Shown: positions 14,090-18,302 of the stretch, one piece after another
Position numbering within the stretch: the first letter of the stretch is position 1
How the letters are laid out: the number at the start of each line of letters is the position of its first letter
DNA from: an uncultured virus (IMG/VR IMGVR_UViG_3300030060_003029)
Lineage: Duplodnaviria > Heunggongvirae > Uroviricota > Caudoviricetes > Crassvirales
Reading direction: 5' to 3' (one strand)
Length of the DNA: 20,000 bases
IMG/VR virus record: IMGVR_UViG_3300030060_003029
Notes under the pieces: model-generated
The model's input: the letters and a program-made list of their open reading frames with translations, nothing else
Databases searched by the model: none
Told to the model about the DNA's origin: nothing
Made by a program: the position numbers and the translations under genes

Positions 14090-14120
14090 TAAAGTTAATT
14101 ATTTTTTCGTTAATTGCAAA
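14090..14120 (-). promoter_or_regulatory. Bacteroidota-type promoter
   Basis: Minus strand TTTG-N19-TAACTTTA; tandem TGTTAATAAC upstream. Confidence 0.7.
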
Positions 14121-15631: not shown

Positions 15632-15662
15632 CAAATATACTGCTTTTCTTGTTAATGTCAAA
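15632..15662 (-). promoter_or_regulatory. Bacteroidota consensus promoter
   Basis: Perfect TTTG-N19-TATATTTG on the minus strand; tandem TGTTAATAAC/TGTTAATATC upstream. Confidence 0.8.
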
Positions 15663-15676
15663 TTATTTTACATTTA

Positions 15677-15829
15677 TTATTCCAAAGATATTAACAAAGT
15701 TATTAACAATTGTTTTTTTGTTTGGATCAAAACACGCATGTTTTTTTCATTCATGCTTGTCATAGTAATATAATCATAGTAATTTTTTTTGGGGAGAACA
15801 TTCATCTCCCCTTGTGTATAACTAATCAT
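15677..15829 (-). CDS. Possible 50-aa hypothetical protein
   Basis: MISYTQGEMNVLPKKNYYDY...; start overlaps the upstream stop (TAATG), but the ORF runs over regulatory motifs. Confidence 0.35.
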   Translation of the reverse strand: MISYTQGEMNVLPKKNYYDYITMTSMNEKNMRVLIQTKKQLLITLLISLE

Positions 15830-16341
15830 TATGCAGTAATTTTATTTAGTAATCTGTATTGATAATCATAATCATCTAAGTCATTATAAAAATTCCCATC
15901 TTCATCTTCTTGAACAAAGTCCTCTCTATCGTGTGTGTAAATAGCATTTCCATCTTGATTTGTCCACCTTTCATTAGATTCTTTGATAGATTCTTTTATC
16001 TGTATTTCTTTCTGTTCTATTTCTTCTTCATACATCTTCTTTGTGAATAGTGCAACCTCGTTTACGTTACATAGTATTCCTATAGCATAGATTGTGTCAT
16101 CTATTTCAAATACTTGATATGTTCCATGGTTTTCAAATTCTCCTTCTTCATATTCTCCTACACCAAATACATATCCATCTCCATCTTTCCAAACCTTGTC
16201 AGCATGTTGTTCGTTGACTCTTTTTTTAGCAAAGTTCATAGCTTTCCTTTTGGTGTCAAATACTTGTATTTCTGTTCCATTGTTAGAAGAATATCCTTCT
16301 CCATTCCAAGTATCTATTACGATATATTTTTTAGTTGTCAT
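15829..16341 (-). CDS. Acidic hypothetical early protein
   Basis: 170-aa, D/E-rich ORF directly downstream of the ardC-like gene. Confidence 0.75.
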   Translation of the reverse strand: MTTKKYIVIDTWNGEGYSSNNGTEIQVFDTKRKAMNFAKKRVNEQHADKVWKDGDGYVFGVGEYEEGEFENHGTYQVFEIDDTIYAIGILCNVNEVALFTKKMYEEEIEQKEIQIKESIKESNERWTNQDGNAIYTHDREDFVQEDEDGNFYNDLDDYDYQYRLLNKITA

Positions 16342-16357: not shown

Positions 16358-16382
16358 TAGGGGCAGTAGTTAGCTACCCCTA
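16358..16382 (-). other. Intergenic RNA hairpin downstream of ardC
   Basis: TAGGGGTAG/CTGCCCCTA stem on the minus strand, followed by an A-rich leader rather than a U tract. Confidence 0.6.
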
Positions 16383-16392
16383 ATTAATAATT

Positions 16393-17322
16393 CTATTTAT
16401 TTAGTATGTACTCTACTGCTTTTTGTGCTTGACTACTCGCATAAACAATCTCTCTTGGGTTGTTTTTTAGGTGCTTTATCCAACCATTGATGTATGCTTG
16501 ACTATTCTTGTCATTATCCTTTGGCTTTAGTCCTAATATGTTAGTTAGAAACATTGCACCTAATTCTGCGACTAATTCCTCTTGACTATATTTAGTCTTA
16601 TTAGAGTTTGTAGCGTTCAAAGTCTTTCTGTTTAATAAGTCCTTATGTCCTGTTGAATGAGTCAATTCGTGGAAGAATACTTTATAATAGTCATCAGATG
16701 AAATAAATGTATTTGGACTGCTCATGTTGATTAGATGTTGACTTGGCTTGTAGTGGCAACCAATGTTGTCTCTATGTTCCAATGTGGGCTTCTTTCTCAT
16801 ATTATCGTATACTGAATCTGCTTCTTTGATTGACTCAAATATACTACCCTTGATTACTTTTTGAATGTTGTGTTTGTCCTCTATGCCCTCAACACAATCA
16901 AGATTGAATACTCTAAAATAACTCGCACTCATTGACTTGTCAACATCTTTCATGGTGTAACCCTTTGGAATTACTAAATCTTCCAATCTACTGCCCTTTA
17001 GATATATTCTTTTGCCTTTGCTATCTGTTACAAAATAAGCTACTCTCCAATTGACTACAATGTCTGAAACACTACCTTTTTTAACTTTGCCACCTAAATT
17101 CTTAGCTTGATTAAATGTGATAAATTCTCTGCTTGAGTAGTTATTGAAGTACATTGACATACTCAATAACATTTGATTAATACCTTTGTAAATCTTGCCA
17201 GTGGTGTGACTTATCGTCATAGTATCTGTGTTACCTGCCCATGATTGAAACCACTCATGCCCACCTTCCTCAAGTCCTTTGATTACTTGCTCTGTGATAA
17301 TTTGATATACATCTTTTTTCAT
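16393..17322 (-). CDS. ardC: ArdC-like antirestriction protein (ssDNA-binding N-domain plus zincin metallopeptidase domain)
   Basis: DVYQIIT..VI..LE.G, TGK.YKGIN...L, ITFNQAK..GGKVKKG, FRVFN, HELTHSTGH (HExxH), YSQEELVAELGA, NSQAYINGW, AQKAVEYI. Confidence 0.92.
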   Translation of the reverse strand: MKKDVYQIITEQVIKGLEEGGHEWFQSWAGNTDTMTISHTTGKIYKGINQMLLSMSMYFNNYSSREFITFNQAKNLGGKVKKGSVSDIVVNWRVAYFVTDSKGKRIYLKGSRLEDLVIPKGYTMKDVDKSMSASYFRVFNLDCVEGIEDKHNIQKVIKGSIFESIKEADSVYDNMRKKPTLEHRDNIGCHYKPSQHLINMSSPNTFISSDDYYKVFFHELTHSTGHKDLLNRKTLNATNSNKTKYSQEELVAELGAMFLTNILGLKPKDNDKNSQAYINGWIKHLKNNPREIVYASSQAQKAVEYILNK

Positions 17323-17342
17323 AATAATTAGTTTAGTTTTTT

Positions 17343-17421
17343 AGTAATAGACACCCCTTCTAAGTCTTCCTCTTAGCGTACTAAGGGGTGTTTCGCTTTT
17401 TTAAAGCTCATCAGTATTACT
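17343..17421 (-). ncRNA. Type I hammerhead ribozyme
   Basis: Minus strand: stem I AGUAAUA, core CUGAUGA, stem II GCUUU/AAAGC, GAA, stem III ACACCCCUU/AAGGGGUGU, cleavage triplet GUC, stem I' UAUUACU. Confidence 0.92.
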
Positions 17422-17609
17422 TATTCCCATATATAATCATAATACTCATCTACTATAATTAGATTAACCTCTAAAGAATTGTGTATTTTACTTATGTGGT
17501 TAGTTTCCATATTATCATTTTCAATATGTTTAACTAATTTCTTCAAATCCCTTAATAATAATATCTTTGCTTCTTGATATTTTTTATCTGTATACTTAGC
17601 TTCATTCAT
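17421..17609 (-). CDS. Hypothetical protein
   Basis: 62-aa ORF whose stop abuts the ribozyme. Confidence 0.65.
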   Translation of the reverse strand: MNEAKYTDKKYQEAKILLLRDLKKLVKHIENDNMETNHISKIHNSLEVNLIIVDEYYDYIWE

Positions 17610-17633: not shown

Positions 17634-17801
17634 TTACTTTGCTCTTTCCTCTATTAATTCTTTTGCTATTTTTAAACTGAATTTAAGTGACATATCTAAT
17701 TGCCCTTCTAAATCTTTTAATTGCCCTTCCAATTCCTCTATTCTTTTTCTTTGCTTGATTATTGTATCATAATCTCTATCTCTTAATACCTCTGTTTTCA
17801 T
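17634..17801 (-). CDS. Hypothetical 55-aa coiled-coil protein, first gene of the early unit (not in ORF track)
   Basis: MKTEVLRDRDYDTIIKQRKRIEELEGQLKDLEGQLDMSLKFSLKIAKELIEERAK with an internal LEGQL repeat; AAACTAAACACATT-ATG leader. Confidence 0.65.
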   Translation of the reverse strand: MKTEVLRDRDYDTIIKQRKRIEELEGQLKDLEGQLDMSLKFSLKIAKELIEERAK

Positions 17802-17849: not shown

Positions 17850-17880
17850 TAAAACTACAAAGACTTTTTTAATTTGCAAA
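17850..17880 (-). promoter_or_regulatory. Bacteroidota-type early promoter
   Basis: Minus strand TTTG-N19-TAGTTTTA, followed by a leader hairpin TGATTGAC/GTTAATCA. Confidence 0.65.
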
Positions 17881-17932: not shown

Positions 17933-18252
17933 AAGGAATAGATGTACAATCTACTATTGGAATTGCGTATGATGTGCGATATAATAATACATTAAATTGA
18001 TAAAGTCAATAGATAATAAATAAAGTTATTAACAATTGTTAGTTGATTGTAAAATGTAAAGAAAATTAACAGAGGGGAATTGATTCTAATGAAGAAACAA
18101 AAACTTTTAATAGTATCGTGCCACACAAGATAGATATGCTCTTAAACGTAAGATTTTGAGGTAATTAGAATGTTTTATGATTCTTCAAATTGTTTTGGGG
18201 ATAATGTGTGTATTTTGTAAGGGGGTTATGTCAATTCTTTATACTACTCACA

Positions 18253-18302
18253 GAACACTCATTCCAGAATAGTTGTTGGAACACTCATTCCAAAATAGTT
18301 GT
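18253..18302. repeat. Direct repeat, two 24-nt copies with 26-nt period
   Basis: GAACACTCATTCCAGAATAGTTGT (18253-18276) and GAACACTCATTCCAAAATAGTTGT (18279-18302). Confidence 0.9.

Follow-up and report, generated by a model that had tools for sequence, protein, structure and literature searches.

A canonical type I hammerhead ribozyme before a phage ardC gene, read as a junction element of the early region

What would a self-cleaving ribozyme do directly before an antirestriction gene, and does it belong to that gene? The question was raised by a 20,000-nt stretch of an uncultured virus (IMG/VR IMGVR_UViG_3300030060_003029), analysed as a whole and called here the window. Its minus strand from 17421 to 17343 is a canonical type I hammerhead, directly before an ArdC gene. 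To judge by DnaB, an exonuclease VIII-like gene and its series of small early ORFs, the window appears to come from a dsDNA phage genome. The gene downstream of the ribozyme (16393..17322, minus strand; 309 aa) has the Pfam domains ArdcN (76.5 bits, 2.7e-21) and MPTase-PolyVal (94.2 bits, 8.2e-27), both above the cut-off, keeps HExxH, and matches PHROG 7245 (anti-restriction). H218, E219 and H222 are invariant across 31 homologs, and the best cultured-phage matches have about 31-34% identity. By its domains it is an ArdC-family antirestriction gene, as the first-pass annotation had proposed.

All early features named here lie on the minus strand. A putative Bacteroidota-type early promoter at 17850..17880 consists of TTTG, 19 nt and an imperfect -7 element (TAGTTTTA). 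It matches the consensus TAHHTTTG (PMC6847099) imperfectly; in L053, L135 and L365 the -7 element of the homologous site is perfect. Over promoter and first leader, 81 of 83 nt are shared with L054, where ardC follows directly. The predicted order of the first transcript is promoter, ORF55, ORF62, ribozyme, ardC, a hairpin and ORF170. ORF55 (17634..17801), the first early gene, has no family and is missing between promoter and ardC in five relatives. ORF62 (17421..17609) has no family either; its UAA stop (17423-17421) supplies A2.7 of the ribozyme and abuts stem I, and a homolog at 68% is a first gene, without a hammerhead behind it. More Bacteroidota-type promoter-like sites, at 15632-15662 and 14090-14120, would split the early region into units. 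From the SD-less A-rich leaders and the TTTG-N19-TAnnTTT(G/A) sites at 17880, 15662 and 14120 we infer a Bacteroidota host. A sigma-70 promoter scan of the window gave hits at chance level (46 vs 48.2). A 20-nt motif stands in two near-copies (18249-18300) upstream of the early promoter and was also seen in L132 and L003; the pair possibly lies near a genome end or is a protein-binding site.

The ribozyme (17343..17421) opens with stem I (17420-17415/17349-17344), which has 6 bp by family comparison and an open end. It is followed by the core segment CUGAUGA (17414-17408), by stem II (17407-17404/17398-17395; 4 bp, again by family comparison) with the 5-nt loop II UAAAA (17403-17399), and by the core segment GAAA (17394-17391). 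Stem III (17390-17383/17359-17352) has 8 bp plus the pair A15.1-U16.1, and carries between its strands (17382-17360) a 6-nt 5' bulge and a 5-bp distal hairpin. U16.1 is at 17351 and C17 at 17350. The cleavage triplet is GUC, and the predicted cut lies between 17350 and 17349, which puts it 27 nt ahead of the ardC ATG at 17322. The window carries every element by which membership of the hammerhead class was judged in the methods of PMC3088659, namely C3 U4 G5 A6 N7 G8 A9, G12 A13 A14, A15.1-U16.1 and H17. The core-closing pairs are G-C (10.1-11.1), U-A (1.1-2.1) and A-U (15.1-16.1).

Folding of a 96-nt stretch gave the three-helix junction both as MFE and as centroid structure (-22 kcal/mol), with a stability (z -3.14) that was equalled in 2 of 200 shuffles. 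The core pattern occurred once in the 20-kb window and in none of 200 shuffles, and a looser structural descriptor was positive in one of 200 shuffled windows. A descriptor scan found no second hammerhead in the 20-kb window. The first-pass annotation had read a complete type I hammerhead here, and the full core, the three-way junction of the predicted fold and the shuffles bear it out; its sequence, coordinates, strand, GUC triplet, cut site and 27-nt leader also agree with ours. Its three fully paired stems stand as three helices, with the exception of full pairing in stem III, which the 6-nt bulge interrupts; family comparison also moves the stem limits, to 6 bp instead of 7 in stem I and to 4 bp with a UAAAA loop in stem II. 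The branched and supposedly atypical stem III was an error: folding gives an unbranched helix with a bulge and a distal hairpin, and in this hammerhead family long stem III inserts are frequent (12-94 nt, up to 146). A terminator-like site on the plus strand (17369-17388) was discarded as stem III read backwards, the count of such sites being near chance (3 vs 1.3 +/- 1.3).

The Infernal search with Rfam models that the annotation had proposed brought no model to its gathering score. Within the 201 nt searched (17280-17480, one overlapping clan match suppressed), the best match was RF03152 RAGATH-1-hammerhead, at 31.7 bits (E 0.00078) and thus short of its gathering score of 56.3 bits. No match to RF00163 Hammerhead_1 (clan CL00010, gathering 34 bits), which has the same permutation as the window's ribozyme, was listed at E<=10 for the same stretch. 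Type I topology, an identical core and a long GC-rich stem III are shared with RF03152, but stem II of that model is 1 bp long and a 5' hairpin is included, whereas the window has a 4-bp stem II with a pentaloop; the region upstream of the core aligns weakly to the 5' hairpin. None of 20 loci of the window's phage family reached any hammerhead gathering score in Rfam, and the hammerhead of the relative L054 barely attains that of RF00163. A blastn search of the ribozyme against 50,697 phage records returned chance-level pieces only; the nearest genome record (G001) begins within ardC. By its core, its helices and its putative tertiary contact, the window RNA is a member of the type I class, but by score it is of no Rfam family.

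A tertiary contact was sought in the 89 family members, window copy included, that have a 4-bp stem II and a 5-nt loop. The last base of loop II (L2.5) and position 1.7 were U/A in 69, A/U in 16, G/U in 1, G/A in 2 and A/A in 1, i.e. complementary in 85 of 89, plus one G-U; the window has A/U. This pair had the highest mutual information among 253 position pairs (0.61; next 0.32). The family sample is biased, because two of its three sources were pattern scans with part of stem I fixed; these scans left loop II and position 1.7 free. The covariation was present in each of the three sources, including the unbiased one, the ArdC loci (17 of 18), and it survived a redundancy cut to 40 dissimilar members (39 complementary), by which relatedness was lowered, not eliminated. 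Further conserved bases are U at L2.1 (86/89), A at L2.3 (82/89), A2.7 (87/89) and A1.8 (81/89), and the window has all of them. Covariation and conserved bases together are the reason for reading 6 bp in stem I and 4 bp, closed by a UAAAA loop, in stem II. In the window, the covariation suggests a tertiary pair between A17399 and U1.7 (17343), so that U1.7 probably pairs with the last loop II base rather than with A2.7.

A Hoogsteen pair between a loop II A and U1.7 is a known rate-enhancing contact, although one paper disputes its necessity (PMC11875169, PMC9217987; parts of both consulted). The A and the U of the minimal hammerheads with a trans-Hoogsteen A(loop II)-U1.7 pair (O'Rourke et al. 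2015, as described in PMC11875169 and PMC9217987) are also found in the window; the phage family differs from them in its mostly 5-nt loop and in that the inverted U/A is commoner (69/89). Our literature search found no description of the A-U/U-A swap, and published alignments may already contain this subfamily. On these sequence features, the window RNA very probably self-cleaves, and the invariant catalytic core together with the covarying tertiary pair would point to selection on cleavage.

In untranslated RNA, a predicted AU-rich hairpin in the 3' end of ORF62 (17414..17445) competes with stem I. The predicted probability of stem I was 0.96 with 10 nt of upstream sequence, 0.07 with 60 nt and about 0.25 in a 219-nt context, values from a secondary-structure model that ignores ribosomes and tertiary contacts. 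The same drop was predicted in 65% of 138 family members, and 23% of 300 synonymous ORF62 shuffles were equally inhibitory; the hairpin at 17445-17414 is therefore not a selected switch, and a selected inhibitory hairpin was rejected as a candidate. L132 has no competing hairpin, and its stem I probability is 0.96. In the window, translation of ORF62 should melt the hairpin. An upstream ORF stopped within -15 to +10 of the core in 104 of the 124 family members with an upstream ORF call (138 examined), an adjacency that is partly built in, because the 5' edge of the ribozyme holds stop triplets.

On the other side of the cut, the leader (17323..17349) is 27 nt long, A-rich and SD-less, with A at -3, -6 and -12. 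In the consulted part of PMC6847099, A-3, A-6, A-12 and A-13 are positive determinants in F. johnsoniae, where the mean leader has 33 nt. The ardC leader resembles the promoter-made leaders of relatives in length and make-up. Both its distance to the ATG and its composition agree with the earlier proposal that the predicted cut would leave ardC with a 27-nt A-rich 5'-OH leader. The predicted accessibility (unpaired) of the ardC start region rose from 0.73 to 0.82 at 37 C and from 0.67 to 0.71 at 20 C upon cutting. Since accessibility would be little changed, separate stability or uncoupling from upstream translation is likelier than unmasking.

Between ardC and ORF170 (15829..16341), the next early gene, lies a GC-rich hairpin (16358..16382), a junction element without a U tract. 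Compensatorily changed counterparts follow ardC in L052, L053, L054, L132 and L133, and not in L135, so that the hairpin itself, which the first-pass annotation had pointed out, is real and conserved. The separate ardC message that had been attached to it fared less well, as the hairpin has no U tract and was absent from the terminator calls of a scan of the window. A message with ardC only may exist; probably ORF170 shares the downstream RNA with ardC, unless the hairpin ends or splits that RNA. In relatives, the equivalent junction is taken by hammerheads, which were seen after ardC (L061, L062, L066, L175 and L185) and before ORF170 homologs (L185 and L235).

The closest relatives suggest how the ribozyme came to this junction. 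L131 is an identical copy of the window locus. L132 (ArdC 94%) and L222, the latter on the same contig as L002 (ArdC 91%), have a hammerhead at the same junction, with stem I and leader unchanged; in L222 it is the sole one found in a 41-kb record. Their stems II and III differ from the window's (94-nt stem III region), fully or nearly fully paired, and the genes upstream of the ribozyme differ as well. In L003/L053, L052, L054, L133 and L135 (60-79%), ardC comes first after the promoter, with no ribozyme in between; L054 and L133 have a hammerhead downstream of ardC instead. The close clade hence has ardC internal with a hammerhead in three cases (window, L132, L222) and first without one in five, with the same promoters on both sides; promoter and leader of L222 resemble those of L133. 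In a quick IQ-TREE tree (108 of 122 rows; ArdC identity below 35.4%, lengths below 250 aa and the partial L222 excluded), the window and L132 were sisters nested among hammerhead-less phages, a placement most simply explained by a single gain that came with gene insertion ahead of ardC. The contrast within the close clade is one evolutionary event. When every ArdC locus with 400 nt or more of upstream sequence was counted (116 of 122), a hammerhead was present in 7 of 91 internal and 0 of 25 first-position genes (p=0.34).

How far ardC itself matters was assessed by counting. A canonical hammerhead cut site lay within 90 nt of 6 of 118 distinct ardC starts, compared with 24 of 1241 other same-strand ORFs (OR 2.7, p=0.04, with noisy ORF calls and related genomes); within hammerhead-bearing loci the OR was 4.2. 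Including variant cores seen by eye, about 11 of 122 ardC loci have a hammerhead. All these counts are lower bounds because variant cores and bulged stems escape the descriptor (L222, L120, L162, L164, L108, L106). Among 80 cellular ArdC loci, none had a hammerhead. In other phages hammerheads lie after ardC or before other genes, with up to four per ArdC locus, and the densest relatives elsewhere have up to 7 in 4 kb. In the examined loci, 142 distinct type I hammerheads precede unrelated small genes, and the leader to the next ATG has a median of 27 nt in the A-rich type (n=92) and 23 nt in the SD type (n=41). As most internal ardC genes do without a hammerhead, the cut is dispensable; an obligate linkage to ardC was rejected on the same counts. 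Rarity before ardC, combined with the many other client genes, makes the element a general junction module, and the mild ardC preference may reflect the early-region address of ardC alone. Our literature search found no paper tying hammerheads to ardC, and published gene lists may already contain ArdC.

Other elements occupy comparable positions in relatives. Variant hammerheads were found in L120 and L162 (110 nt before ardC), where the form is type II-like and stem II weak, and in L164 and L108 (100 nt before ardC), type III-like with U replacing G10.1/C11.1. Ten loci (L060, L068, L078, L079, L080, L081, L110, L111, L123 and L141) have a conserved motif of the CACTATAGAA type and a GC hairpin 70 nt before ardC; the motif is reminiscent of a T7-like phage promoter. 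In L090, L126 (75 nt before ardC) and L084, a tRNA T-arm-like hairpin, GGUUCGAUUCC, adjoins the ardC leader and the hammerhead is replaced; L090 is the sister of the hammerhead-bearing L104 in the ArdC tree. Outside ArdC loci, the same type I family is represented in a cultured Flavobacterium (sp. A45 contig, L352:1476-1540), where the ribozyme precedes a 269-aa lipoprotein-like ORF by 20 nt. L224, L246, L247 and L267 have 4-7 members in 4 kb, each fused to an AGGAGG leader (19-26 nt); these arrays are the same hammerhead module in SD-using hosts. A Bdellovibrionales MAG contig (L354, L356) has three near-identical type III hammerheads with the stem I sequence of the phage type I family.

The reading that we favour, with somewhat better than even confidence, is that of a type I hammerhead, active and cleaving in cis in an essentially constitutive way, that would punctuate the early polycistronic transcript of a Bacteroidota-type phage. 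Transcription would start at the promoter at 17880-17850 and run through ORF55 and ORF62. Once ribosomes had passed the ORF62 stop, the ribozyme would fold, by stem I and the A17399-U1.7 pair, and cut. Owing to the type I topology, the upstream ORF55-ORF62 message would keep almost all of the ribozyme, with stem II, the GC-rich stem III and a 2',3'-cyclic phosphate, as its 3' end, and the downstream message, with ardC and probably ORF170, would receive an unstructured A-rich 5'-OH leader akin to that of ardC as first gene behind a promoter. The likely gain would be ardC stability and initiation independent of the genes inserted ahead. The element would then be a general junction module of hypervariable phage early regions, with ardC as a frequent client and not the specific target. 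In favour of this reading, the element stays at the junction in relatives while its helices are swapped. Against it count the folding of naked RNA, in which upstream context would disfavour stem I, the start region, whose predicted accessibility the cut would hardly alter, and the weak contrast between internal and first-position genes over all ArdC loci.

The first-pass annotation had instead seen a device tuning anti-defence expression, and a ribozyme under selection for higher or well-timed ArdC output in early anti-restriction would fit several observations: the sole hammerheads found in the window and in the L222 record each precede ardC, the ArdC tree has hammerhead-ardC pairs in about six separate places, ardC is enriched over other ORFs and more so within hammerhead-bearing loci, and ardA offers a precedent (PMC3088659, consulted in part). 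We consider it unlikely, as about 95% of ardC genes have no hammerhead, close relatives lack it (five of them at this junction) or have it elsewhere (L054 and L133, downstream), and the same family precedes dozens of other genes, ardC sitting where such ribozymes concentrate anyway. Lower still is the probability of a timer coupled to translation, in which the ribozyme would fold only after ribosomes on ORF62 had melted the hairpin and then left the stop, so that the cut would report upstream translation. The overlap of the ORF62 stop with A2.7 and the loss of predicted stem I in the presence of the hairpin agree with it, but the drop is widespread in the family and in the shuffles, L132 has no competitor, and the hairpin looks like an AU-rich side effect in a folding model that excludes tertiary contacts.

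Cleavage could also be incidental, and the conserved ribozyme edges could serve as crossover sites for gene shuffling, or the element could be a near-neutral passenger. The window and L132 indeed share the 5' edge, the 3' edge and the leader, and nothing inside or upstream; ribozyme bodies were also more similar where only the upstream gene was shared (mean 0.83, n=75) than where only the downstream gene was (0.60, n=29; random 0.57). That contrast is dominated by one near-relative clade and distant ArdC pairs, however, and the ORF62 homolog travels without a hammerhead; a cassette of upstream gene plus ribozyme body at the window locus was rejected on both grounds. As the invariant core and the covarying tertiary pair would argue for selection on cleavage, we hold this explanation to be about as improbable as the timer. 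The least probable is silencing, by which the cut would lower ardC output through degradation of the 5'-OH product and limit a costly early protein, much as glmS self-cleavage leads to degradation and reduced expression (PMC6765202, consulted in part). The remaining leader has the look of an optimised initiation region, of the same type as promoter-proximal leaders, and cutters before nearly every gene of some relatives (7 in 4 kb) would make poor sense as silencers.

Some relatives raise a further idea. Two of 143 hammerheads examined (L109, L263) are a complete ribozyme followed by several coreless 3' halves, each laid out as a GC hairpin, 3-5 nt of the stem III strand, GUC, the stem I strand and a leader. 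L263:2000-3940 (G007, a complete 32-kb genome) has one core and four GUC plus stem I halves genome-wide, and L109:2875-4900 one core and four extra halves. In both, each half precedes a gene, one of them ardC (in L263 identified by eye through its match to P0025). Weaker matches to single coreless halves came from two further loci, and L095:3490-4000 and L136:180-253 each have a coreless 3' half immediately ahead of ardC; the L095 half is matched by stem I of a hammerhead upstream of it, whose stem II has a long insert, and the L136 contig ends too soon for such a partner to show. In modelled complexes of core and orphan half, two of three L263 sites came within about 1 kcal/mol of the best fold, and the others were 3-9 kcal/mol worse. 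A search of the window found no coreless half, so its ribozyme would act in cis only. The coreless halves may be duplication relics or a shared-core system. In the latter direction, one may doubtfully envisage a standardised system of mRNA processing to which the window's ribozyme would belong as well: stem I, the leader and the loop II-1.7 pair would be its exchangeable interface, and the single core of some relatives would serve, over long range or in trans, several coreless modules at later gene junctions, the one before ardC among them. No phage case of one core with several coreless halves was found in our literature search.

The junction-cutting pattern in phages has been known since 2011 (PMC3088659), and the mechanism proposed by the first-pass annotation is largely anticipated there. 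In the part of that study consulted (Perreault et al. 2011), hammerheads flank single genes or short blocks in prophages without constant gene identity, native transcripts of ~2 kb are cut by them in vitro, and in vivo cleavage is reported around ardA, with cleavage in E. coli as well as in vitro; ardA lies directly downstream of a hammerhead in three Legionella strains, and in Agrobacterium tumefaciens too a hammerhead is found upstream of ardA. A canonical core, an intergenic place in an early phage transcript and an antirestriction gene downstream are common to those ardA hammerheads and the window, and processing into gene-length mRNAs, proposed there, is likewise what we propose here. The window differs in its gene (ardC, of an ssDNA-binding and metallopeptidase family), its Bacteroidota-like host, its SD-less leader and its single ribozyme in 20 kb, and in that its tertiary contact is apparently one swappable A-U/U-A pair, whereas 4-bp pseudoknots are stressed there. 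Consulted parts of later papers describe bacterial self-cleaving ribozymes as clustering near certain phage genes, with a purpose that they leave unsettled (PMC6765202, PMC5737381, PMC10085705), and suggest for phage hammerheads a processing into transcripts of differing stability or translation (PMC6765202). Type I hammerhead cleavage has been linked to translation initiation in eukaryotic RNA viruses (bioRxiv 10.1101/2024.05.16.594327, consulted in part), which would be an analogy to the window only.

The ribozyme of the window is in itself ordinary; the one surprise, if true, would be the shared-core lead in its relatives. The comparative gains are small: the loop II-1.7 contact is backed by a naturally occurring A-U/U-A swap, and Rfam thresholds miss a large subfamily of hammerheads in marine phages. 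For the early regions of these phages, the sister genomes with the same promoter, in which ardC comes either first without a ribozyme or third behind one, offer a natural comparison.
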